Source: an uncultured Flavobacteriales bacterium
GTDB taxonomy: Bacteria > Bacteroidota > Bacteroidia > Flavobacteriales > UBA1820
DNA: 64,000 nt
Direction: 5' to 3'
NCBI GenBank assembly: GCA_938023515.1
Contig: CALJDR010000053.1
Location: forward strand, 28,331 to 92,330
In this document: piece by piece, positions 35,676 to 49,754 of the stretch
Layout: each line of letters opens with the position of its first letter
Position numbering within the stretch: position 1 is the stretch's first letter
Program-made: the position numbers and the translations under genes
The notes under the pieces: model-generated
The model's input: only the letters and a program-made list of their open reading frames with translations
The model's database searches: none
What the model was told of the DNA's origin: nothing

Positions 35676-35751
35676 GCGGAAATAGCTCAGTTGGTAGAGC
35701 ACGACCTTCCCAAGGTCGGGGTCGCGGGTTCGAGCCCCGTTTTCCGCTCCA
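35676..35751 (+). tRNA. tRNA-Gly (anticodon CCC), CCA encoded
   Basis: GCGGAAATAGCTCAGTTGGTAGAGCACGACCTTCCCAAGGTCGGGGTCGCGGGTTCGAGCCCCGTTTTCCGCTCCA gives a full 76-nt cloverleaf with anticodon loop TTCCCAA. Confidence 0.9.
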
Positions 35752-36047: not shown

Positions 36048-37280
36048 ATGAACAGTACATTCAGAATCCTCTTCTATGCAAGATGGGAAAAGAAAAAAGA
36101 GAACGGTCGAGTTCCCCTACAAGCGCGTATCACTCTCGATGGTGACAAAGTAAAATTCAGCCTTAAAGTTGATGTATCGCCAGACATCTGGGATCCCAAG
36201 GCCGGTAAAGCCACCGGACAAACAAAAGATGCTCTCCAATTGAACCGTTATCTTGACAGCGTCAAAGGGCAAATTATCACACATTATCATCGACTGGCCG
36301 AGGCTAACGAGGTTGTCACTGCCCACATGATAAAGGATGCCTTTCTCGGAACCAATGTCAAAACCAACACACTACTGGATGTCTTTACTGAGTTCAACGA
36401 CCGCCAAGAAAAACTGATCGGGATCGACCTCGCTCAATCCACATTCAATAAATACGACCTGACTTATCGCCGGCTTCAGGAGTTTCTGAAAGTCAAACTC
36501 AAGAAAACCGATATTCTGCTCGGGCAAGTAGACCAGAACTTTGTTCTCGATTTCGAGGCTTACCTCAAAACCGAATACCGGCTCGACACTAACTCATCCG
36601 AGAAGCTGATGCGTATTTTCAAACGCATTACCACGATGTGCTTCCGCAACGGCCAGATGTCGCGCGATCCGTTCTGCGGCCACCAACTCAAAAAGGTCAA
36701 GAAAGACCGGGGCTATCTGACCAAAGCCGAATTGGAATCCATTCTTGACTTCACGCCCGACAGTAAACGATTGGAAAAGGTGCGCGACATCTTCCTGTTC
36801 TGTTGCTTCACTGGCTTCGATTACTCGACGACGGCTGCGCTGACCGAGAAACACATTGTAATGGATGACGACGGTAACCAATGGATCGAAACGCACCGCA
36901 TTAAAACTGGGACTCCGTTGAAAGTCAAATTGCTCGATATTCCGCTCTCCATCATCCGAAAATATGAAGCTACACGCGATGGGGATTTCCTGCTGCCGGT
37001 GATGAGCAATGCCAAGTACAACCTCTACCTAAAGGAGATCGCCTCGGCCTGCGGGATCGAAAAGCGTGTAACCTCGCACCTCGCGCGGCATACTTTCGCC
37101 ACGACGGTCACTTATGCGAACGGTGTGTCGATCGAATCGATCAGCAAGATGCTCGGCCACACCAAGATCAGTACGACCCAGATCTATGCCCGTATTGTCG
37201 ATAAAACCGTTAGCGATGAGATGGATAGTCTTGCCGAAAAACTCAGCAATACTCGACTCGGCAAAACTGAAGTGATTTGA
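36048..37280 (+). CDS. tyrosine-type site-specific integrase (Bacteroides CTn/mobilizable-element type)
   Basis: N-terminal arm-binding domain (FRILFYARW...GRVPLQARITLDG). Catalytic HLARHTFAT and LGHTKISTTQIYARI. Confidence 0.85.
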   Translation: MNSTFRILFYARWEKKKENGRVPLQARITLDGDKVKFSLKVDVSPDIWDPKAGKATGQTKDALQLNRYLDSVKGQIITHYHRLAEANEVVTAHMIKDAFLGTNVKTNTLLDVFTEFNDRQEKLIGIDLAQSTFNKYDLTYRRLQEFLKVKLKKTDILLGQVDQNFVLDFEAYLKTEYRLDTNSSEKLMRIFKRITTMCFRNGQMSRDPFCGHQLKKVKKDRGYLTKAELESILDFTPDSKRLEKVRDIFLFCCFTGFDYSTTAALTEKHIVMDDDGNQWIETHRIKTGTPLKVKLLDIPLSIIRKYEATRDGDFLLPVMSNAKYNLYLKEIASACGIEKRVTSHLARHTFATTVTYANGVSIESISKMLGHTKISTTQIYARIVDKTVSDEMDSLAEKLSNTRLGKTEVI

Positions 37281-37281
37281 T

Positions 37282-38541
37282 TCACGTTGCCGTTGCAGTC
37301 GATAATATGTTGCCAATATCCCGTTTATACTGTTGCTCGAAATCCGCTAAATAATTCTCTGTTGTCAACACGCTAGTATGTCCCAATCCTTTAGATATGT
37401 AGGGAATCGGGACGCCATTATGCATTAATATGGTCGCCCAGGTATGACGGGCGACCATCGAAGTAACGCATTTTTCGATGTTGAGTATCTTGGCGATACG
37501 TTTCATCGTATTGTTAATCACACGTAAAGCGAATCTGTTTGCTGTAACTTTATCTTCGGCGGTCATCGTTTCATCGAAGATACCGAACAGATAGGCATCC
37601 TTATTCTTTTTGCTGCACACAGCCCAGCGATCGATGATTTGTTTAGCTTCTGGGGTCAGGAAGATTTCGACATTCTCTTCCCTGCGACACATATACTTGG
37701 TCTTCTCCCGGATAAAGTAGAGAAAATCATTGTCGACATTGCTCCATTTCAAATTGAAAATATCATTCATATTCATCCCGTTGCAATAAAAGCTCAGCAG
37801 CCACATATCTCTTGCCCATTCTTCTTTTTCGGTTGACCGGTAGTTCTTGATTAGCATGAGTTCACTGTGGAGCAGAGACTTTTTCTTTCGGCGCGATGAG
37901 GGAATTTCGTATTTATTGTGGGCGCGGCGGCCGAATGGGTAATCGAAGGAAGAAATCACTCCTGCACGCTTAGCCATATTCACAATAGCTTTCAAATGTC
38001 GCATCCGGATTCCGACGGTCGACTTCTTGCAGCCGCTGTCCAACATTATTTGTTCGTACTTATAGAGGAATTTCGTGGTTATCTGGTGAAATTTCAGATG
38101 TTTTCGGTAACACTGCAAAGAGGCCATGACGTTCTCGTAAATCTTGGCCGTCCCGACGCGATTTTCTTTTTTCAGTTGCTCTATTTTGACCTGAAAGGTG
38201 GCGTAAGCATCAGTGACATCATATTTATTTTTTCGGGCGGTTCCGAACATGTGTTCCTCAAAATCATCGAACGAAAAATCTTCACTTAGGACCCGAATGA
38301 GTTTTCGGGCCTTGGACAGTATTTCCAGCACGTGATCTTTTTTTTGTCGCACGGTTGGATAAGCGGTTTCGGAATTGATTTTCGACCATTCGTCTGGGGT
38401 GACTTTAATGTTGGTCGGATAGCTCTTTTTTGATTTCGGGTTCTGGTAGAGAAAAAGTCTCAGGTGAAATTCTCCACTTTTTAATAGCCGTCTGTAGTCA
38501 GGCCGGATTGTAGCGGAAATGCAATGTAAATGGGATTTCAT
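37282..38541 (-). CDS. tyrosine-type site-specific integrase
   Basis: Catalytic MVARHTWAT and LGHTSVLTTENYLAD. The internal ATG at 38541 (MKSHLHCISATIRPDY...) is preferred over the upstream ORF start at 38652. Tail-to-tail with the previous integrase, with a 1-nt spacer. Confidence 0.8.
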   Translation of the reverse strand: MKSHLHCISATIRPDYRRLLKSGEFHLRLFLYQNPKSKKSYPTNIKVTPDEWSKINSETAYPTVRQKKDHVLEILSKARKLIRVLSEDFSFDDFEEHMFGTARKNKYDVTDAYATFQVKIEQLKKENRVGTAKIYENVMASLQCYRKHLKFHQITTKFLYKYEQIMLDSGCKKSTVGIRMRHLKAIVNMAKRAGVISSFDYPFGRRAHNKYEIPSSRRKKKSLLHSELMLIKNYRSTEKEEWARDMWLLSFYCNGMNMNDIFNLKWSNVDNDFLYFIREKTKYMCRREENVEIFLTPEAKQIIDRWAVCSKKNKDAYLFGIFDETMTAEDKVTANRFALRVINNTMKRIAKILNIEKCVTSMVARHTWATILMHNGVPIPYISKGLGHTSVLTTENYLADFEQQYKRDIGNILSTATAT

Positions 38542-39034
38542 TTTATGTTTTTGAGGGGTTTGAACACCGGAGGCATTTATATCAGGTGCCTCCAGAATGT
38601 GCCTCAAAAATACGCCAAACAAAATTAATTCCAGGCACCTTTCTAGTTCCAAAAAGAATACATTAGTCTATTTATGAGCAACTTGTAATTCTAATAATAT
38701 ACGAACAATATACGAACCTGACTCATAATCAGAGGGTCGTTAATTAAAAAATACAAAACAGGACAAAAAAATGCAACATTTTGCCCTGTTTTTTTATGTA
38801 GGTATTGGGCTTGGATTCATTTTTATTTGCATTTGTTTATAACTGTTTCCATACGAACAAAAATGCAATGATCATGGTTTTTTGCTAAGAGTCAAGAACA
38901 TCGTGATCTTATTCTGCGAACAATATTCGAAAATAATCGAACGATTGTAAACCATTTTCTGCTGTTTCCTCTATTCCTCATTGTAAGAGTGCAACTCTTT
39001 CAATTACGGATGTTTAACAGTAAAACACAGAATT

Positions 39035-39567: not shown

Positions 39568-41928
39568 CTATATTGCTGACTGGTATAAGTATCTTTGAAA
39601 AGTCAGGAATGTTTCACGCACGTTTTCAATGCTCCCCAACTCGTTTATTCCTTCGTTAACCGATCCAAATTTCATTTGTAAAAGCACAGGTAGTTTTTCA
39701 AAAGATAGTTCTGTAACACCTGCTTCTATATATTTATTTAAAATAAAATCAATGAAATCCTTTTGTTGTGCGGATAATACGGGATACAAATGAGATGCGG
39801 CAAAGTCAGCGCGTTCGGAACGCTCAATCGGCGTGGTTGCATATGCTATATATTCAAGGACATCGAAAAGATCGCTTTTTTCTGCATTTATCAATTTCTG
39901 TACTTCCCTGAGAACTTCTATACCATAGCCCGCGTCCTGCATCTTAGTCAATAATCCTTCCCTTGTTGTGGGATCACACCATAATGTTCGTAATTCCTGT
40001 TCGTCCTTGAAAAATTCGGGAAGCTTTCCAAAAAGGGTCTCTAGGAATTGTTCCGCAGTAACAGGCCTCCCGTCAACCCAAAACAGGTCACTCCGTATGT
40101 GCCTTATCTGGCGGACGCGACCGTCTGAAAGTGCAATTTTCAGTTTCTCTTTAGGTGGGCAGGTGCAGGGGTCGTTGCCGCACTCTTTACATGTTCGGTC
40201 TTTGTCGCAGGTGCATGGTCTCTCGCCGCATACCGGGCATGGGGGCGTCGGTGATTTAGAGCCGCCTTTGCATGTGCATGGAGTATTTCCGCACTTGGTA
40301 CATACCGGCTCTCCGTCCCAGCTGGGGTCGTTGAATTTTTCGTAGGCTTTTACAAAATCATAAATGGTAAAGTAATGTTTGCCGTCATATAGCCTTGTCC
40401 CACGCCCTATAATTTGTTTGAACTCCACGATAGAGTGTATGGGACGTAACAAAACTATATTCCGTATGTTTAATGCGTCTACACCGGTCGATAATTTATG
40501 GGAAGTTGTTAAGATGGTGGGAATGGTCCGTTCATTATCTTGAAATTCACGCAGGTATTTTTCTCCTGTTTCGCCGTCGTTTGCTGTAACCCTGACACAG
40601 TAAAATGGATTTCTGCTTTTACTTTCTTGGTTGATAATATCTCGGATTGCAGCAGCATGGGGCTGATTATAACAAAACACTAGCGTTTTTTCATGCTTCC
40701 CGATGTACTGCATGAATTCTTTAACCCGGGCGACATCTCTTGCACGTATTTCTATGTTACCCTGATAGAAGTCATTTTCGGTGTACGTCTTGCTCTCTTC
40801 TACTTCTCCGCTTAGGACAACGTCATCCGGCTGATAGATGTAATCATCGATATTACTTTGCATCTTGACATGACGGAACGGGGTAAGAAAGCCTTCTTCG
40901 ATACCTTGTTTGAGGGAATATGTGTAAACTGGCTCGCCGAAATAGTTATATGTATCGGCATTAACATCCCTGCGGGGTGTCGCGGTCAAACCTAATTGAA
41001 CTGCCGGAGAGAAATATTCGAGGATGTAACGCCAATTGCTTTCGTCTTTTGCTCCGCCTCTGTGGCATTCGTCTATGACAATGAAGTCAAAGAAATCAGG
41101 TGGATATTGGCCGAAGTTGGGTTTACCGTCGCCTGTCTGGAATGTCTGAAATATGGTGAAGAAAACGCTCCCGTTAGTTGGAACGCGGCCTTTCTTCTTT
41201 ATGCTTTTGGGGCTGATCCTGACCAGCGCATCGTCTGGAAAACCTCCGAAGCCATTAAATGCCTGATCGGCAAGTATATTTCTGTCTGCCAGAAATAAAA
41301 TACGCGGACGCAGATTGTTCTTGGCCAGATTCCAGCGGGTTTGGAAGAGTTTCCATGCGATCTGGAAGGCGATAAATGTTTTGCCGGTTCCGGTTGCCAA
41401 GGTCAGGAGCAAACGGTTTTTGTCTCCAGCAATACCTTCGAGGACCCGGTTGACGGCAGCTTCCTGAAAATAATACGGGGATTTGCCTCCTGACGTATAG
41501 AATGGTTGCTCATTAAATGTGTCGCGCCAGTAGTCGGTCGTGTAACCGAAGGTTTTACCCCATAATTCATCCGGTGACGGGTAATTATCGCAGGGACCTT
41601 CTTCGCCCGTATCCATGTCGATGGCGTAGATCTCATCTCCGTTAGTGGCGAATGTAAAACGGATTCCCATCATCCGGGCATACAACTTGGCTTGCATTAC
41701 GCCCTCACCGACATGCTTTTCGTCACTCTTAGCCTCGACAATAGCCAACTTAGACCCTTTATAGCTGAGGATATAATCGGCTATAAGAGGCCTCTCTCTT
41801 CTGGTGCCCTGTATTTTACCTTTGGTAATGTTCTGCTGAGTAAGGATGCGGCTGTTCCCGACCTTTCCCCACCCGGCAGCTTCCATGCTGGGCACAACTT
41901 TTTCGAGGCATGTCTGAGCTTCGTTCAT
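39568..41928 (-). CDS. hsdR: type I restriction enzyme, R subunit
   Basis: N-terminal PD-(D/E)xK nuclease (ADYILSY...IVEAKSDEK). SF2 helicase motifs (LATGTGKTF, VIDECHRG, TATP). C-terminal EcoEI_R_C-like domain. Confidence 0.9.
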   Translation of the reverse strand: MNEAQTCLEKVVPSMEAAGWGKVGNSRILTQQNITKGKIQGTRRERPLIADYILSYKGSKLAIVEAKSDEKHVGEGVMQAKLYARMMGIRFTFATNGDEIYAIDMDTGEEGPCDNYPSPDELWGKTFGYTTDYWRDTFNEQPFYTSGGKSPYYFQEAAVNRVLEGIAGDKNRLLLTLATGTGKTFIAFQIAWKLFQTRWNLAKNNLRPRILFLADRNILADQAFNGFGGFPDDALVRISPKSIKKKGRVPTNGSVFFTIFQTFQTGDGKPNFGQYPPDFFDFIVIDECHRGGAKDESNWRYILEYFSPAVQLGLTATPRRDVNADTYNYFGEPVYTYSLKQGIEEGFLTPFRHVKMQSNIDDYIYQPDDVVLSGEVEESKTYTENDFYQGNIEIRARDVARVKEFMQYIGKHEKTLVFCYNQPHAAAIRDIINQESKSRNPFYCVRVTANDGETGEKYLREFQDNERTIPTILTTSHKLSTGVDALNIRNIVLLRPIHSIVEFKQIIGRGTRLYDGKHYFTIYDFVKAYEKFNDPSWDGEPVCTKCGNTPCTCKGGSKSPTPPCPVCGERPCTCDKDRTCKECGNDPCTCPPKEKLKIALSDGRVRQIRHIRSDLFWVDGRPVTAEQFLETLFGKLPEFFKDEQELRTLWCDPTTREGLLTKMQDAGYGIEVLREVQKLINAEKSDLFDVLEYIAYATTPIERSERADFAASHLYPVLSAQQKDFIDFILNKYIEAGVTELSFEKLPVLLQMKFGSVNEGINELGSIENVRETFLTFQRYLYQSAI

Positions 41929-41932
41929 GCGG

Positions 41933-43060
41933 TTACAGTTCCCCGTTGAATGCTTTTGCTAAGATAATGTTTTTTATGGTATTGCAGTAATCTATAGTGC
42001 GCTGATAGTTAATTTTCAGCTGTACATTTTTGTCTTCAATAGCCATGATCTTAATAACTATACTTTTCTGATTATCAATAGAAGGCACATGAATTGGAAT
42101 TCCTTTTAAAATTTTTACAGATGCGACATTTTGAATAGCAGCTCCTTTAGAATGTAACTGTAAAGCATTCTGGAATCTCTGACTCTGCATCCAATACATC
42201 AAATATTGATTATTGAGATTGTCTTTGGGCGTCAGCTTTAATAATGCTTGATTTATGATGCCTTTGGGAGCATCTTGAGGTATTATATACATTTTTCCTA
42301 GCGTTCCCGAGCAACTCATTATTATTTCTCCGGGCAGAACGGCAAATCGATTCATTTCTATATATTTGTCACTGTCAATAAAATATCTGAAATTTAATTT
42401 CCCATATATAGCATGTTGCTGTTCATAAACAGCATAACCAGACAACTTAAAACAATTCTTTTTGAGACTCCCCCCGAAGGGGCCTCTTATGAAATGACAA
42501 ACTTCACCCATCTTTTGGGGTGATATTTCTCCTTCAATTGCCTCAAATATATTGTTTGTGAGCCGATTACATAGAAGCGCAAGGTTTTCGATATTCCTTT
42601 CTGCATTGTGTTTGATCTTGTCGATTTTGACAAATGCGTCATCGAGAATGGCGACAATTCTTTTCTGTTCAACTAAAGTCGGATAAGAAACGGATAATGA
42701 ATAAACATCATCTCTATTTATTCCAGGTTTTACCCCTTTTGATAAACTTGTTAAATCTTTAGATAACAACAAATAATAAAGAAATTGAATGTCGATTTTC
42801 TGATCGTCAAAAACGGTATAATATGTTACATCTAATGGATAAAAAGGAGCATAGCTAATTTGAAGAGCTCCAGCCGTTCCTTTTCGACCTATTATGATTG
42901 ATGGCTTATTGTAGTGCGCTTTATGTGTTTTATCTATTGGACCATTTGCACCAAACACAAGGTATTTTCCATCTGCCGATCTCTCACCGGAAGCTAATGC
43001 TTTCCCATAGCGAAGTTCGCATAAGTCTTTTAGTTGAACCTTTTTCCACTCCTCTTTCAT
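41933..43060 (-). CDS. hsdS: type I restriction-modification system, specificity subunit
   Basis: 375 aa with two target-recognition halves separated by conserved helices (LVEQKRIVAILD..., IDNQKSIVIKIMAIED). The start overlaps the hsdM stop by 4 nt. Confidence 0.85.
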   Translation of the reverse strand: MKEEWKKVQLKDLCELRYGKALASGERSADGKYLVFGANGPIDKTHKAHYNKPSIIIGRKGTAGALQISYAPFYPLDVTYYTVFDDQKIDIQFLYYLLLSKDLTSLSKGVKPGINRDDVYSLSVSYPTLVEQKRIVAILDDAFVKIDKIKHNAERNIENLALLCNRLTNNIFEAIEGEISPQKMGEVCHFIRGPFGGSLKKNCFKLSGYAVYEQQHAIYGKLNFRYFIDSDKYIEMNRFAVLPGEIIMSCSGTLGKMYIIPQDAPKGIINQALLKLTPKDNLNNQYLMYWMQSQRFQNALQLHSKGAAIQNVASVKILKGIPIHVPSIDNQKSIVIKIMAIEDKNVQLKINYQRTIDYCNTIKNIILAKAFNGEL

Positions 43061-44508
43061 AACAGTGCCTTTATTTCTTTCAACAAAACATCGCTTTCGC
43101 GGTTGAGGGTATGCATCTCACTGATTATTTCTTCGGGGGTACGCAAATCTACGTCGTCGGTTCGATTCGGGTTCTTAACCGACAAATCCAAGATGTCGGG
43201 ATCAAGGTCCGACACTTTTATACTCCATGAATTGGGGCTGCTTTTCTGTTTGGGTTGCAATGAGACAAAATCCGCGAGGTCCAGCTCTGTCAGGGGGTTG
43301 GTCTTGCCCAGGTTCCGCTCGGGTGCAAACTGGTAGTACCACACTTTATCGGTTGCATGTCCTTTCTCAAAAAACAGAACGACCGTTTTAACCCCGGCTC
43401 CTGTGAAAACGCCGGAAGGAAGGTCGAGTACGGCATAAAGGTTACAATCTTCCAACAGTTTGCGGCGTAATGCAATGGAAGCATTATCCGTGTTGCTCAG
43501 AAACGTATTCTTTATAATGATTGCAGCCCGGCCTCCGGCTTCGAGGTATCGCATGAAATGCTGCAAAAACAGATAGGCCGTTTCACTGGTCTTAATGGGA
43601 AAGTTATGCTGGACTTCATCGCGTTCTTTTCCCCCGAAAGGCGGATTAGCAAGGATGATCTTGAACTTGTCTTTGTCCTGTACTTCGGCCAAATTCTCAG
43701 AGAGCGTATTCTTATGGATAATGTTGGGAGCTTCGACTCCATGAAGAATCAGGTTCATGATGGCTATGATATAAGCCAGCCCTTTTTTCTCTTTGCCGTA
43801 GAGGGTCCGTTTCTGGAGTTGTTCCATGTCGGCCGTGCTTTTCGCTTTATCGTACAGGTACATAAAGGCTTCGCACAGAAAACCGGCCGATCCGCAGGCA
43901 CCATCGTAAATCGTATCCCCTATTTCGGGCTTAATAACTTTTATCATGGTACGTATGAGGGGGCGGGGAGTATAATATTCACCTCCGTTACGACCGGCGT
44001 TACCCATACGCTTAATGCGGCTCTCATAAAGATGGGACATTTCATGTTTATCGGAAGATGTATGAAATCTCATTTCATCAATTAACCAGAGCATTTCCCG
44101 CAGGTTGTAGCCGCTGGTCAGTTTATTTCGGAGTTCTCCGAATATCTCACCGATTTTGTATTGAATCGTATCGGAAGACTCTGCTCTGTCGCGAAAACTT
44201 TTTAGATAGGGGAATAGCTCTCCATTCACGAAGTCAATCAAATCGTCCCCCGTAAGTGCATTATTATGATCCGGCTTTCCATCTTGCATGTGAGGGGCTG
44301 CCCACTCGGACCACTTGTATTTCCCTTCAATTATGGGAGAATATTTTTGTTTCTTTAATGTGGCCTCTTGTGCTTTATCTATTTCAAGATCGTCAAGGTA
44401 TTTCAAGAAAAGTACCCATGATGATTGCTCTACATAATCCAATTCTGTTCCGCAACCATCATCCTTACGCAAAATATTATCTATATTATTGAAAGCCTGT
44501 TCAAACAT
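43057..44508 (-). CDS. hsdM: type I restriction-modification system, N6-adenine DNA methyltransferase subunit
   Basis: HsdM_N region, SAM motif DGACGSAGFL and catalytic motif IV NPPFGG. Confidence 0.9.
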   Translation of the reverse strand: MFEQAFNNIDNILRKDDGCGTELDYVEQSSWVLFLKYLDDLEIDKAQEATLKKQKYSPIIEGKYKWSEWAAPHMQDGKPDHNNALTGDDLIDFVNGELFPYLKSFRDRAESSDTIQYKIGEIFGELRNKLTSGYNLREMLWLIDEMRFHTSSDKHEMSHLYESRIKRMGNAGRNGGEYYTPRPLIRTMIKVIKPEIGDTIYDGACGSAGFLCEAFMYLYDKAKSTADMEQLQKRTLYGKEKKGLAYIIAIMNLILHGVEAPNIIHKNTLSENLAEVQDKDKFKIILANPPFGGKERDEVQHNFPIKTSETAYLFLQHFMRYLEAGGRAAIIIKNTFLSNTDNASIALRRKLLEDCNLYAVLDLPSGVFTGAGVKTVVLFFEKGHATDKVWYYQFAPERNLGKTNPLTELDLADFVSLQPKQKSSPNSWSIKVSDLDPDILDLSVKNPNRTDDVDLRTPEEIISEMHTLNRESDVLLKEIKALL

Positions 44509-45642: not shown

Positions 45643-46299
45643 TCAATTCTTCCAGGTTGTGAATGCCCGTTTTGCAGCCAAAAAATCATATTCCGGTTTT
45701 GCCTGTGACAGCAGAAACATAACGTCATAAAAATCACGGCCTTTCCCACGGGATAGCATAGCCGATATTTTCATTGAGCATACTACCCCGTCCGATGGCA
45801 CGGGAAAGGGGAAGAAAAAACCGCAACCCTTGATTTGGGCCAACTCAGGCTTGTAGGTGATTTGCTGGTCCTGACTTTCTACCTTTATCAGAAAGCGCTC
45901 GTCCCGATGTCCCGACAGCCCCAGATCGAACCACAACCCCGGGAAATGGATATTGCGCCGGAAGGCTTTTAACTTCGGATTCTCTTTGTCCCTCACCTCC
46001 GCGTTCATTCCATTTCGTATAAGGAATGTTAATACTCCATCGGTCATTTCGATAAATTCTTCCAGCGTCAGTCCTTTGCAATCGAAATCCAGATATTCGG
46101 ATAATAGATCTATGCCTTTGACCAAACGTAAATCCGTTTCCCTAATAAAAGTAATCTTTCGAATATAGGGCATACCCGACAGATAATCCAGAATCATTAG
46201 TTGCAGATATATCTTTGAGCATATGCTTTTGAGACGAGGCGTTATCCCTTAGATTAGCCGGGAAGTAGAGTAGTTCTTTATCGGGTCTAACTGTATCAT
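45643..46299 (-). pseudogene. AbiEii/AbiGii-type nucleotidyltransferase toxin, degraded
   Basis: Has the YLDFD and KGRDFYDVMFLL motifs of the family. The N-terminus needs two frameshifts: the ATG at 46299 overlaps the upstream stop as ATGA, then reads MIQLDP.. / ..ELLYFPANLRDNASSQKHMLKDI / YLQLMILDYLS. FIRETDL stands where I recall the conserved F.GGTAL. Confidence 0.5.
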
Positions 46300-46905: not shown

Positions 46906-47088
46906 TTGGACGTGTCCATCGAAACGGCCAGCTCTATGTCCGGCCATACGAATATCCGGATGTCACAGCACTATGCGAAGATCGCCATTTCCAACGTGGG
47001 GCGCGATATGGAAAAGTTGAGGGAGCGGAACAAACCAAGTAAGCCTAAGAACGAAAAATCCCGCCATTCGGCGGGATTTTGGTTATGA
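46906..47088 (+). pseudogene. C-terminal approximately 55-aa fragment of a tyrosine recombinase
   Basis: DVSIETASSMSGHTNIRMSQHYAKI aligns with GVSIESISKMLGHTKISTTQIYARI of the integrase at 36048. Everything upstream of it is missing. Confidence 0.65.
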
Positions 47089-47115: not shown

Positions 47116-47400
47116 TTATTTATTGGCCCATTCCAGCACGTTCGGGCTTTCGACATCCACCCCGAATTCACGGGCTTTCGTCAGTATCCGGCGGGCCAAC
47201 TCCGGCTTGTCTTCATCGGCTGCGAAATGGAACCGCGATTCTGCCGCACGGACATGTTCGGCATCGGGCATAGGGAATTCGCGTTTTGCCGGAATTCCGA
47301 ACTCCGAATCGGCCAATTCGCTGCGTCCTTCGGCGGTGAGCCGGTCCGTACCGTCATAATGCGGATTGGGGTCGCGGTGGGGTGTCTTCTCTGTTTTCAT
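47116..47400 (-). CDS. small conserved hypothetical protein
   Basis: L.DSEFG.P..REFPMPD.EHVR.A.SRF......KPELARRI..KA.EFGV resembles a small phage/plasmid DUF family; the number is not certain, possibly DUF6582. GC is higher than in the neighbouring genes. Confidence 0.5.
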   Translation of the reverse strand: MKTEKTPHRDPNPHYDGTDRLTAEGRSELADSEFGIPAKREFPMPDAEHVRAAESRFHFAADEDKPELARRILTKAREFGVDVESPNVLEWANK

Positions 47401-47411
47401 ATCGCGGGATA

Positions 47412-47717
47412 TTATTTCTTCTTTGTCAGGTAGATAAAGTCCAAATCAAATGCATGGATTATCTTTTTCATCATCACCTCAGTCGGATTTCGGGTTCCTT
47501 TCTCAATACCAATAATTGTATTTACCCCCACCCCGGCCAACTTCGCCAATTCTGCCTGTGAGATTTTTCGTTTCTTTCTCAATTCCTTGAGTAATTCGCC
47601 AAAACTGGCGGCAGCCACATCATCTTTTTCTGTTATAATGACAGTGCCCCCTTCTTTGACCAGTTCGTCATTAAGAAGTTTAATTAAGGATGATGTCAAT
47701 TCGCTATATTCTCCCAT
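47412..47717 (-). CDS. XRE-family helix-turn-helix transcriptional regulator
   Basis: LKELRKKRKISQAELAKLAGVGVNTIIGIEKGTRNPT is a canonical HTH_3 motif. Confidence 0.75.
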   Translation of the reverse strand: MGEYSELTSSLIKLLNDELVKEGGTVIITEKDDVAAASFGELLKELRKKRKISQAELAKLAGVGVNTIIGIEKGTRNPTEVMMKKIIHAFDLDFIYLTKKK

Positions 47718-48460: not shown

Positions 48461-49372
48461 ATGAATTCAAATGAATTGAAGAAAAAGGCAAAAGGCGTTA
48501 GACCAATAATCTTTGGTGAAATTGCAGGAATAGATGAAGGACATTGGTTTGATAGTAGGCAGGAAATGATGCCTTCAAGTTTTCATCGCAACTGGGGCCG
48601 AGGAATAGATGGGAATGCAGAAGAAGGAACAGCAGCAATCGTTCTCTCTGGAGGATATGAAGATGATCAAGATTTTGGTAATATTATCATATATACAGGA
48701 GAAGGCGGGAATGATCCAAATACTAAAAAGCAAATAAAAGATCAATCGTGGGAAAGTCAAGGCAATGCAGGGCTTCGTAAAAGTATGGATGAGGGATTAC
48801 CCATTAGAGTGATTAGGGGATATATGCACAAATCTGAACTTTCACCTAAAGAGGGATATGTTTACGCTGGATTATATAGCGTTGTCGAAGCCTGGCAAGA
48901 AATAGGAAAAAGTGGTTATAAGATTTGTAGATTTAGGCTTGAATATAGTGGAGTAAACGAAGGAAGAGAAATTCCAAAAAATATAAAACTTGACTACAAG
49001 AAGAAAGAGAAAAAAAGAAAAGAGGGAACTATTGTCCGAATAGTCCGAGATACTAAAATGGCACACGATATCAAGGAATTATATAATTATGAATGCCAGG
49101 TGTGTGGTTCCACAATAAAAACGAAATCAGGCAGATATGCTGAAGGAGCCCATATTAAGCCTCTTGGAATTCCCCATAATGGGGATGATAGTCCAGACAA
49201 CCTATTATGCCTCTGTCCCAACCATCATGTTATGTTTGATCGAGGATGTTTTTCAATAAAGGATGATTATAAATTGATTGGAGAAGCTGAAGGCACCTTG
49301 AAACGCCACGACGATCATAAAATTCAATTATCGAACTTGAAATATCATAGATCAATTCATGGATACAATTAA
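48461..49372 (+). CDS. SRA(YDG)-HNH modification-dependent (type IV) restriction endonuclease
   Basis: N-terminal SAD/SRA domain (FGEIAGI..G.WF.SR.E.....H......GIDG....GTAAIVLSGGYEDDQD.G..IIYTGEGG...GN.GL......G.PIRVIRG......P..GYVYAGLY.V...W). C-terminal HNH domain (CQVCGS...AHIKP....G.DSPDNLLCLCPNHHVMFD). Confidence 0.8.
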   Translation: MNSNELKKKAKGVRPIIFGEIAGIDEGHWFDSRQEMMPSSFHRNWGRGIDGNAEEGTAAIVLSGGYEDDQDFGNIIIYTGEGGNDPNTKKQIKDQSWESQGNAGLRKSMDEGLPIRVIRGYMHKSELSPKEGYVYAGLYSVVEAWQEIGKSGYKICRFRLEYSGVNEGREIPKNIKLDYKKKEKKRKEGTIVRIVRDTKMAHDIKELYNYECQVCGSTIKTKSGRYAEGAHIKPLGIPHNGDDSPDNLLCLCPNHHVMFDRGCFSIKDDYKLIGEAEGTLKRHDDHKIQLSNLKYHRSIHGYN

Positions 49373-49754
49373 AGTTGTTTGTGGTATCATATATAAGGGA
49401 GATAAAATTTTTATTTGCCGAAGAAAGCCAGAAAAGTCTATGGGGGGATATTGGGAGTTCCCAGGTGGAAAAATTGAGGCAGGGGAATCCTTTGAAGAAT
49501 CATTAATCAGAGAATTGGACGAAGAGCTTGGAATGAAAGTTGTGCCTCTAAATCATTTTACCACGGTCATCCATACTTATGATACATTTATAATTGAACT
49601 AATTGCATTGAAATGCCGTTTAGTAGAAAAGCCAACAAAATTGGCCGATCACGATGCGGCTGATTGGGTTGGCGCCAAAGATTTAAAAAACATACAGTTT
49701 GCTCCAGCTGATATTCTCATTGTTCAGGAGTTATTATCACAAGAAACTAAATAA
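49359..49754 (+). CDS. Nudix (MutT/NudG-like) nucleoside-triphosphate pyrophosphohydrolase
   Basis: Complete Nudix box GGKIEAGESFEESLIRELDEELGM. 131 aa. The start overlaps the SRA-HNH stop by 14 nt. Confidence 0.8.
   Translation: MDTIKVVCGIIYKGDKIFICRRKPEKSMGGYWEFPGGKIEAGESFEESLIRELDEELGMKVVPLNHFTTVIHTYDTFIIELIALKCRLVEKPTKLADHDAADWVGAKDLKNIQFAPADILIVQELLSQETK

Follow-up and report, generated by a model that had tools for sequence, protein, structure and literature searches.

The 64,000-nucleotide (nt) stretch of DNA analysed here, referred to as the window, derives from an uncultured Flavobacteriales bacterium (contig CALJDR010000053.1) and contains a pair of overlapping genes on its forward strand: gene A, which encodes an SRA-HNH nuclease, and gene B, which encodes a Nudix hydrolase (Table 1). 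B starts with an ATG at 49359, so that its first 14 nt overlap the end of A, including the A stop codon (TAA, 49370–49372), and a terminator scan detects no forward-strand terminator-like site between the two genes. A sigma-70 promoter scan around the pair is uninformative, as Bacteroidota promoters lie outside the model, and no convincing forward-strand terminator is found there. The pair contains about 37% G+C (0.372 for A and 0.366 for B), compared with 50–56% in the flanks (0.557 on the left and 0.498 on the right), and is located at the right edge of a ~14-kb low-GC island (35.7–50 kb) that adjoins a tRNA-Gly(CCC) gene. The original prediction, made from the letters alone, had placed both open reading frames (ORFs) and their 14-nt overlap at exactly these coordinates and had described the genes as AT-rich members of a defence island. 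It had also named A an SRA-HNH enzyme of the TagI type and B a MutT/NudG-like Nudix hydrolase with a perfect Nudix box; both assignments are upheld by the matches described below.

Table 1. Features of the A-B locus and of the surrounding island (window coordinates).
Feature	Position	Strand	Description and basis
Gene A, predicted SRA-HNH modification-dependent (type IV) restriction endonuclease, TagI family	48461–49372	+	303 aa; ORF, Pfam, TagI alignment
SRA (YDG) base-flipping domain of A	48512–48943	+	Residues 18–161; Pfam PF02182 SAD_SRA
HNH (beta-beta-alpha-Me) nuclease domain of A	49094–49261	+	Residues 212–267; Pfam PF13391 HNH_2
14-nt overlap junction (ATGGATACAATTAA)	49359–49372	+	End of A (..HGYN*) in one frame, start of B (MDTIK..) in the other
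Gene B, single-domain Nudix hydrolase, cytosine-nucleotide branch (NudG / Q5LBB1 / MutT2 / S. aureus 5X1X), not true MutT	49359–49754	+	131 aa; Pfam, PADLOC, PDB matches, fold
Nudix box G37-x5-E43-x7-R51-E52-L53-x-E55-E56-x-G58-M59	49467–49535	+	Read from translation; invariant in family alignment
C-terminal motif A115-P116-A117-D118	49701–49712	+	Alignment with NudG, Q5LBB1, 5X1X and MutT
tRNA-Gly(CCC), island start	35676–35751		
Tyrosine integrase 1	36048–37280	+	
Tyrosine integrase 2	37282–38652	-	Adjacent to integrase 1, opposite orientation
Type I restriction-modification hsdR	39568–41928	-	
Type I restriction-modification hsdS	41933–43060	-	
Type I restriction-modification hsdM	43057–44508	-	
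AbiEii-like fragment	45643–46197	-	Without AbiEi partner
Integrase C-terminal remnant	46906–47088	+	60 aa
DUF6582 gene and XRE-type helix-turn-helix (HTH) gene	47116–47717 (HTH 47412–47717)	-	HTH divergent, ~740 bp upstream of A

Protein A contains an SAD_SRA domain (E = 2.6e-45; 154.3 bits against a Pfam cut-off of 30.7) followed by an HNH_2 domain (E = 9e-14, 51.5 bits), and TagI (PDB 6ghs) matches it from end to end with an E value of 7e-69 and ~43% identity. The TagI paper describes a flipped-base pocket formed by Ile38, Tyr55, Asp58, Tyr67 and Thr68. These residues correspond to I49, Y66, D69, Y78 and T79 of A, respectively, all of which are invariant in the SRA-HNH alignment with TagI; the pocket thus comprises two aromatic walls (Y66 and Y78) and a carboxylate (D69), the reader of the cytosine Watson-Crick edge. 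In the HNH domain, a zinc site is formed by C212, C215, C252 and H255 (CxxC...CxxH), and the catalytic residues are H231, D243, N247, H256 and D260. Mutagenesis identified C210, C213, H229, D241, N245, C250, D253, H254 and D258 as essential in TagI (TagI paper), and their counterparts in A are C212, C215, H231, D243, N247, C252, H255, H256 and D260. The CxxH that replaces CxxD of TagI is the sole change among the mapped catalytic and structural residues, and the TagI paper reports the CxxH variant of the zinc site as functionally equivalent. TagI cleaves DNA containing 5-methylcytosine (5mC) or 5-hydroxymethylcytosine (5hmC) and does not cleave glucosyl-5hmC DNA (TagI paper). Because the pocket, zinc-site and catalytic residues all match those of TagI, A is predicted to be an active enzyme that depends on 5mC or 5hmC.

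A has 3312 homologues at E ≤ 1e-10, the nearest of which are 292-aa Bacteroidota proteins with 66–75% identity. It carries an 11-residue N-terminal extension (MNSNELKKKAKGV, window 48461–48499) that is without a counterpart in close homologues, which begin at the position of residue 13; the start codon of A may be elsewhere, and the homologous position shows no evident in-frame ATG, GTG or TTG. PADLOC provides no specific model for gene A and returns weak HNH matches only. No credible instance of the C5-methyltransferase motif IV (PCQxFS) is found in any frame of the 64-kb window, and the only methylase in the island is the N6 type I HsdM.

Protein B matches the Pfam models NUDIX_4 (E = 1e-21) and NUDIX (E = 2e-16), and its Nudix box (GX5EX7REUXEEXGU) is complete, with Met rather than Ile, Leu or Val at the final position. 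In a sequence search of the PDB, the best group of matches comprises 5X1X (a 130-aa "MutT", E = 5e-22), 3GWY, 2RRK and Mycobacterium smegmatis MutT2, and E. coli MutT ranks lower. 3GWY is Bacteroides fragilis Q5LBB1, annotated as a "putative CTP pyrophosphohydrolase", and 2RRK is E. coli NudG, also named Orf135. An AlphaFold2 model of B (predicted local distance difference test score, pLDDT, 93.8) adopts a single-domain MutT-like fold. Its top fold match is 3GWY, with a template modelling (TM) score of 0.85 and an E value of 3e-13; MutT2 (5ZRO, crystallized with 5-methyl-dCTP and dCTP) and E. coli NudG are within the top dozen. The second-ranked fold match is BdRppH, an RNA pyrophosphohydrolase of Bdellovibrio, and the fold ranking alone therefore leaves the substrate of B unsettled.

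A C-terminal motif further groups B with the cytosine-nucleotide enzymes. It reads FAPAD in B, LAPAD(IP) in NudG, WAEAD(KP) in Q5LBB1, WAPAD(IP) in 5X1X and FPPAN in E. coli MutT. The (L/F/W)A(P/E)AD pattern and a preceding His are common to the B family, NudG, Q5LBB1 and 5X1X, while MutT has Gly at the His position; A117 and D118 are invariant in the B family alignment. The Asp of the motif is probably important for substrate recognition by Orf135; a literature search for the recognition residues of this enzyme found nothing usable.

Enzymes of this branch have been characterized kinetically. Q5LBB1 hydrolyses 5-methyl-CTP, 5-methyl-dCTP and 5-hydroxymethyl-dCTP with kcat/Km values of 4–7 × 10^6 M-1 s-1 (PMC5158307). 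It does not distinguish the methyl from the hydroxymethyl substituent (4.8e6 for 5-methyl-dCTP and 4.4e6 for 5-hydroxymethyl-dCTP), is 50-fold slower on 5-hydroxy-dCTP, and shows much lower values for canonical nucleoside triphosphates (NTPs) (PMC5158307). The original prediction had noted that E. coli NudG-type enzymes are reported to hydrolyse 5-methyl-dCTP, which the literature confirms, as NudG prefers 5-methyl-dCTP over CTP by ~30-fold (PMC5158307); Q5LBB1, the closer relative of B, takes the methylated and hydroxymethylated substrates about equally. NudG activity has also been reported on 2-OH-dATP and 5-hydroxy-CTP. B further matches the PADLOC candidate model PDC-S07 (E = 9.6e-48; B residues 1–128 against profile positions 3–131 of 135). 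As 99% of Enterobacter genomes reportedly contain a PDC-S07 match, the match of B cannot separate a defence-linked from a housekeeping Nudix protein; no functional test of PDC-S07 was found in the literature. The Q5LBB1 orthologue itself is recorded in many B. fragilis assemblies as a 96-aa product (loci L163–L165, 5001–5291; P0295, present in 241 blocks of the collection), followed by a 48-aa ORF in L165; a truncation or frameshift of the gene in part of the species, or a miscalled start, may account for this.

To place the pair in its genomic context, we scanned one GTDB genome per species with an SRA-HNH alignment, kept the best 80 loci, and searched the ORFs of these loci with a profile built from B homologues. 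Of the 34 loci that most resemble A (61–71% identity), 20 have a Nudix gene directly downstream in the same orientation. All 20 loci, and the metagenome locus L086, share a homologous junction, CATGG.TA..ATTAA, in which one frame reads ...HGY(N/D/H)-stop and a second begins M(D/G/A)(T/I/M)IK...; the overlap seen in the window is thus conserved. The linked species span Flavobacteriia, Chitinophagia, Sphingobacteriia, Cytophagia and Bacteroidia as well as Vibrio and Photobacterium. The genera are Flavobacterium, Aquimarina, Robiginitalea, Elizabethkingia, Chitinophaga, Taibaiella, Edaphocola, Sphingobacterium and Algoriphagus, with one Bacteroides metagenome-assembled genome (MAG); the Gammaproteobacteria are Vibrio sp. 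HN007 and Photobacterium ganghwense. Because the same junction occurs across 20 species that include two Gammaproteobacteria, the SRA-HNH-Nudix cassette moves as a unit. The divergence of A is correlated with that of B across pairs (Mantel r = 0.39, reached by 1 of 2000 permutations).

Three more loci carry the Nudix gene in longer operons, which brings the same-operon total to 23 of 80. L015 (1777–4870) and L037 (1766–4861) have the order Nudix, DUF2075/Schlafen-type helicase, SRA-HNH. L039 (3–4873, a Mucilaginibacter MAG) encodes a 466-aa protein without assignment, a MazG-like NTP pyrophosphatase, a DUF2075 helicase, the Nudix protein and the SRA-HNH protein, and may be a composite type IV system that depends on NTP and includes two nucleotide hydrolases. 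The DUF2075/Schlafen-group-3 helicases of these three loci are 608–620 aa long, and no domain is assigned to their N-terminal ~230 residues.

Compared with a single Nudix-family match in ~620 other genes of the loci, the linkage yields a Fisher p value of 4e-28 for 20 of 34 and of 2e-22 for 23 of 80, both calculated with shared ancestry ignored. Neighbourhood enrichment, the first of the checks attached to the original prediction, thus gives a strongly positive result. Since the p values ignore shared ancestry, the number of independent arrangements is the stronger argument that the pairing is not due to chance. The 35 other operonic neighbours of the 80 SRA-HNH genes include no Pfam family more than twice. 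No other recurrent SRA-HNH partner was found: no further neighbour family appears more than three times, the DUF2075 helicase being present at three loci and a HIT-domain gene at two. At the latter two, the related Flavobacteriaceae loci L001 (3452–3817) and L005 (3557–3922), the HIT-domain gene (histidine triad nucleotide hydrolase) immediately precedes the SRA-HNH-Nudix pair.

The A-B DNA of the window is 100% identical in four gut-metagenome contigs (L167–L170), which have the right flank in common. Their left flanks are of two types that diverge ~200 bp upstream of A, and the pair, identical beside both left-flank types, is thereby recognizable as a small mobile cassette. The overlapping Nudix gene is uncalled in L167 and L168, truncated to 104 aa in L169 and called correctly in L170 only. 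Small genes that overlap in this way are probably annotated too rarely, which may be one reason why the pairing went unnoticed. Carriage of the module on phages or plasmids was considered and rejected: in 2.9 million viral contigs, SRA-HNH genes give only 4 matches, each of them close to the end of its contig, and there is one full-length match on plasmids; relatives of B in phage records reach at most 37% identity, and the best of these is really S. aureus chromosomal DNA (L166, described below).

In a reverse survey, metagenomes were scanned with the B family, and a graded sample of 80 Nudix loci among the matches listed (32–59% identity) was inspected. Of the 16 loci with a family-profile score of 126 bits or more, nine have a nuclease-type neighbour, compared with 1 of the 64 lower-scoring loci (p = 4e-7), again among the matches listed. 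SRA-HNH neighbours occur in L083 (disrupted), L086 and L087, and in a convergent orientation in L097. L085 encodes an HNH protein beside the B-family Nudix protein. In L088 (966–2269), the 3' end of a gene for a 305-aa protein overlaps the B-family Nudix gene by 4 nt; this protein is a close homologue of the EVE-HNH enzyme VcaM4I (PDB 6yex, E = 4.6e-47), which flips and depends on 5mC or 5hmC and whose description makes no mention of a Nudix protein (PMC7897488). The B-family Nudix genes of L092 and L098 follow genes ending in DUF3427. L089 (66–2116) encodes a 553-aa NOV_C/DUF3883 (PD-(D/E)xK-like) protein whose gene overlaps the Nudix gene by 4 nt; the 430-aa N-terminal region of this protein has no domain match, and the protein has no relative in the PDB. 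In L083 (3131–4414), the SRA-HNH gene is split into ORFs of 209 and 56 aa and the downstream Nudix gene is intact with its 14-nt junction; here the Nudix gene outlived the nuclease. In a rough neighbour-joining tree without bootstrap, all nuclease-linked Nudix proteins and B form one clade, with 5X1X and NudG next to it, the Q5LBB1 clade separate and MutT as the outgroup.

These arrangements bear on a rival explanation, in which B is a generic antimutator of the MutT/NudG type that sanitises 8-oxo-dGTP, 2-OH-dATP or 5-hydroxy-dCTP and was captured once beside an SRA-HNH gene, with no link to cytosine methylation. Its NCBIfam scores for MutT and NudG are equal, its homologues are named 8-oxo-dGTP diphosphatase in source annotations, the reported activities of NudG on 2-OH-dATP and 5-hydroxy-CTP would suit such a role, and the single junction shared by all 20 pairs may derive from one capture event. 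A single capture, however, cannot explain why this Nudix clade is linked in no fewer than five further ways: in helicase operons of either gene order, with the convergent SRA-HNH gene, and with EVE-HNH, DUF3427/SauUSI and NOV_C. The low-scoring housekeeping Nudix genes in the same scan usually lie beside MutY glycosylase domains or TPR proteins, with a single small HNH neighbour among the 64, and the APAD motif and fold ranking place B with the cytosine-specific enzymes and not with E. coli MutT. We consider the passenger explanation improbable.

A Nudix gene next to a modification-dependent nuclease has been noted before in a different setting. Xu et al. (2011) described a conserved MutT/Nudix gene beside sauUSI and stated that at least 60 SauUSI-like enzymes are so linked (data not shown); their guess was that it helps to break down pyrophosphate, and they did not settle on a function (PMC3141236). 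Monk et al. (2012) deleted the nudix gene beside sauUSI in S. aureus Newman, and the strain was still not transformable (PMC3312211). Since this deletion did not abolish restriction, the Nudix protein is best regarded as an accessory and not as a required nuclease subunit, and by analogy the same would hold for B. In the S. aureus chromosomal DNA of L166, a 1-nt gap separates the Nudix ORF from the next gene, which encodes a 953-aa protein with PLD, helicase and DUF3427 domains. The Nudix protein of L166 is nearly identical to the 5X1X chain, whose PDB entry gives methicillin-resistant S. aureus as its source; the solved structure that best matches B by sequence is therefore a SauUSI-linked Nudix protein. 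The record of L166 is OR845003.1, labelled 'Staphylococcus phage SA 1306 Kay' (UNVERIFIED_ORG, 55.6 kb); it includes the chromosomal nudix-sauUSI locus of S. aureus and is host DNA, transduced or misassigned, rather than the genome of a phage.

Literature searches on SRA-HNH, type IV restriction or modification dependence together with Nudix returned nothing on an SRA-HNH-Nudix pair. Neither the TagI paper nor a PUA/SRA-HNH screen, which mapped 3-kb neighbourhoods for methyltransferases, mentions a Nudix partner. The claim in the original prediction that such an operon is undescribed agrees with these searches for SRA-HNH enzymes, but it needs qualifying for type IV restriction at large, because a Nudix gene beside the 5mC-dependent SauUSI was noted in 2011 (PMC3141236).

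The pyrophosphate guess leads to another reading of B, in which it acts on a substrate other than a deoxynucleoside triphosphate (dNTP) and thereby regulates or assists the nuclease; candidates include nucleotide second messengers, nucleic acids with a capped or 5'-triphosphorylated end, and pyrophosphate and ATP products. The rank of BdRppH among the fold matches and the speculation of Xu et al. (PMC3141236) are in its favour. Against it, the TagI paper presents SRA-HNH enzymes as NTP-independent, which would leave no ATP products to clear; SauUSI restriction is unchanged by the nudix deletion (PMC3312211); and the Pfam Nudt16-like decapping model scores 21 bits on B, below its threshold of 27. 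A non-dNTP substrate appears very improbable.

The analysis thus establishes the identity of both proteins, their intact active sites and their conserved linkage. Three experimentally characterized nuclease families with unrelated readers (SRA, EVE and DUF3427) are repeatedly joined to a Nudix branch whose measured members prefer 5-methyl- and 5-hydroxymethyl-(d)CTP, and we infer that B probably hydrolyses 5-substituted dCTP, an activity that would be useful alongside such a nuclease. This substrate assignment draws on homology and on the association with three unrelated readers of 5mC or 5hmC, and the role proposed next is held more weakly. A and B would be transcribed together as one cassette of a modification-dependent (type IV) restriction system. 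A would act as a TagI-like dimer, in which the SRA domains flip 5-methyl- or 5-hydroxymethylcytosine out of incoming DNA and the HNH domains nick or cut near the flipped base. B, made from the same mRNA by way of the conserved 14-nt overlap, would convert 5-methyl-dCTP and 5-hydroxymethyl-dCTP to the monophosphate and pyrophosphate and so keep modified cytosine out of DNA synthesis. Breakdown of heavily modified foreign DNA by the nuclease and by exonucleases of the host would release modified dCMP that could be re-phosphorylated; if the resulting modified dCTP were built into the host chromosome, it would create the nuclease's own target, and B would close this loop. B would also prevent m5C-to-T mutagenesis in a host without m5C repair.

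We tentatively propose host self-protection of this kind as the main benefit of B. Tight coupling recurs in independent architectures, where the paired genes overlap by 14 nt or, in two cases, by 4 nt, or lie 1 nt apart in S. aureus, which suggests that the benefit of B depends on the presence of the nuclease. The persistence of restriction after deletion of nudix would fit a protective accessory rather than a nuclease subunit. The substrate would also have a plausible origin: degradation of a fully substituted phage genome is estimated to yield on the order of 10^4 modified dCMP, which is comparable to a bacterial dCTP pool.

Several observations weigh against this proposal. B scores 82.1 bits against the NudG equivalog (NCBIfam PRK10546), under its cut-off of 156, and 81.4 and 79.9 bits against two MutT equivalogs with cut-offs of 97.9 and 148. 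Being under both sets of NCBIfam thresholds with equal scores of ~82 bits, B is strictly an equivalog of neither NudG nor MutT, and its identity to characterized enzymes is only 30–36%. Most SRA-HNH genes among the best 80 loci manage without a linked Nudix gene. Even among the 34 close loci, 14 have none downstream (11 in Chryseobacterium, one in Ferrimonas, L015 with its Nudix gene upstream, and L031 with a weaker, convergent one), and in L006 and L012, the two Chryseobacterium loci scanned, the SRA-HNH gene adjoins an EamA transporter gene. In the distant SRA-HNH clade (44–59% identity), a Nudix gene is present in 2 of 46 loci and missing from the other 44. Conversely, intact B-like genes without a nuclease or beside a broken one occur in L083, L084, L090, L093, L094 and L101, and such genes are more readily explained by an independent function than by self-protection alone. 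In S. aureus, nudix was evidently deleted in a strain that retained sauUSI, so that the Nudix protein is dispensable as an immunity factor in the laboratory. Host dCMP kinases may also discriminate against 5-substituted dCMP, and T4 needs its own hydroxymethyl-dCMP kinase; salvage-driven self-targeting would then be rare. The two-component module of the original prediction accordingly holds in so far as the linkage is real, but the linkage belongs to one clade (20 of 34 close loci against 2 of 46 distant ones) and the Nudix component appears, from the S. aureus deletion, to be accessory (PMC3312211).

Some of these observations would be accommodated if B were instead a second defence arm that hydrolyses the 5-methyl- or 5-hydroxymethyl-dCTP pool of cytosine-replacing phages and stalls their replication while host dCTP is left untouched. 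B would then also act on phages that glucosylate hydroxymethylcytosine after replication and so escape TagI-type nucleases, and the two genes would cover each other's escape routes. The equal activity of Q5LBB1 on 5-methyl- and 5-hydroxymethyl-dCTP, near the diffusion limit, agrees with this idea, as does the failure of TagI to cut glucosyl-5hmC DNA, which would make an arm at the level of the pool complementary. B-like genes are found alone or beside a degraded nuclease, B matches the single-gene candidate PDC-S07, and the nuclease can do without the Nudix protein, both at most SRA-HNH loci and in the S. aureus deletion. On the other hand, the repeated tight coupling suggests a benefit tied to the presence of the nuclease, and PDC-S07, with its presence in 99% of Enterobacter genomes, probably also recognizes housekeeping NudG and is weak evidence for defence. 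An anti-phage phenotype for any such Nudix protein was not found in the searchable literature, and hypermodified-cytosine phages of Bacteroidota are undocumented, a point that the TagI authors made for SRA-HNH hosts generally. We regard this second-arm explanation as somewhat unlikely; phage starvation and self-protection are not mutually exclusive.

In its broadest form, the idea would make one Nudix clade a general second component of modified-cytosine immunity, an effector that destroys the modified dCTP of phages and that was independently recruited by at least three unrelated 5mC/5hmC nucleases (SRA-HNH, EVE-HNH and SauUSI/DUF3427). This generalization is a doubtful one. Manipulation of the dNTP pool likewise decides which DNA replicates in nucleotide-depletion defences (dCTP deaminase and dGTPase) and in their mirror image, the T4 dCTPase gp56. 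The known depletion defences remove canonical dNTPs at a cost to the host, whereas B as proposed would remove the modified nucleotide only. If true, this would be the first nucleotide-depletion defence against a non-canonical nucleotide, would carry no cost for the host and would be effective on glucosylating phages that escape the nuclease.

The remainder of the island (Table 1) looks like a composite of several insertions. A search for an att-like direct repeat of the 3' end of the tRNA-Gly gene, meant to delimit the island, gives no match of at least 12 nt up to 52 kb. The divergent XRE-type HTH gene was considered as a general component of the module and rejected, as the 80 genome loci contain one weak match only; an HTH protein with 44% identity is encoded at the corresponding site of the alternative left flank (L168/L169, 1931–2392), and the gene could encode a local regulator. 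To the right of the island lies a Bacteroidales Mfa/FimA-type fimbrial operon. To its left are genes of the isocitrate/isopropylmalate dehydrogenase family, the aconitase family (C-terminal domain) and a threonine dehydratase, which look like branched-chain amino-acid biosynthesis genes.

Gene A adds one new member to a known family. The pair as a cassette, together with the wider attachment of one Nudix clade to several modified-cytosine nucleases, is a new variation on type IV restriction, for which the function proposed here is drawn from homology and gene context. Type IV restriction is regarded as the work of single proteins that require no partner, since the host lacks the modification. 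A coupled, predicted modified-dCTP hydrolase beside three unrelated type IV families suggests an overlooked cost or gap in such systems: either recycled modified nucleotides threaten the host chromosome, or the nucleotide pool is a second battlefield against modified-cytosine phages. The pairing recurs across many bacteria, so far without explanation, and either answer would account for the linkage that was noted beside SauUSI in 2011 and left unexplained. If true, the proposal would also give a physiological role to a Nudix family annotated as 8-oxo-dGTPases. Possible uses include a clean pyrophosphatase specific for 5-methyl-dCTP and 5-hydroxymethyl-dCTP and better transformation of strains that carry such systems.

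Among known systems, A most closely resembles TagI (PDB 6GHS), ScoA3IV/Sco5333 and TbiR51I, with which it shares the two-domain architecture and length, and it is collinear with TagI throughout. The pocket (Y, D, Y, T and I) and the H-N-H catalytic residues of A and TagI are identical, whereas the zinc site is CxxC...CxxH in A and ends in CxxD in TagI. VcaM4I and TspA15I are likewise 5mC/5hmC-dependent fusions of a reader to an HNH nuclease, but their reader is an EVE domain of the PUA superfamily in place of the SRA domain of A. B resembles Q5LBB1 (3GWY), NudG/Orf135 (2RRK) and MutT2 (5ZRO), all of which are ~130-aa single-domain folds with a complete Nudix box and the A-x-A-D motif; the preference of these enzymes for 5-substituted (d)CTP is measured, while that of B is predicted by homology. 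Q5LBB1 is encoded by a stand-alone chromosomal gene of B. fragilis with no nuclease neighbour, in contrast to the nuclease-linked B. The closest parallel to the pair as a whole is SauUSI with its linked Nudix protein (SAUSA300_2432, solution structure 5X1X), in which a 5mC/5hmC-dependent type IV nuclease likewise lies beside a Nudix protein of the same branch. The linked Nudix protein shares 34–37% identity with B and is placed next to the nuclease-linked clade in the unbootstrapped neighbour-joining tree. SauUSI itself is unrelated to A, as it combines PLD, an NTP-dependent helicase and a C-terminal DUF3427 reader, and the gene order also differs: the Nudix gene lies upstream with a 1-nt gap at the SauUSI locus and downstream with a 14-nt overlap at the A-B locus.

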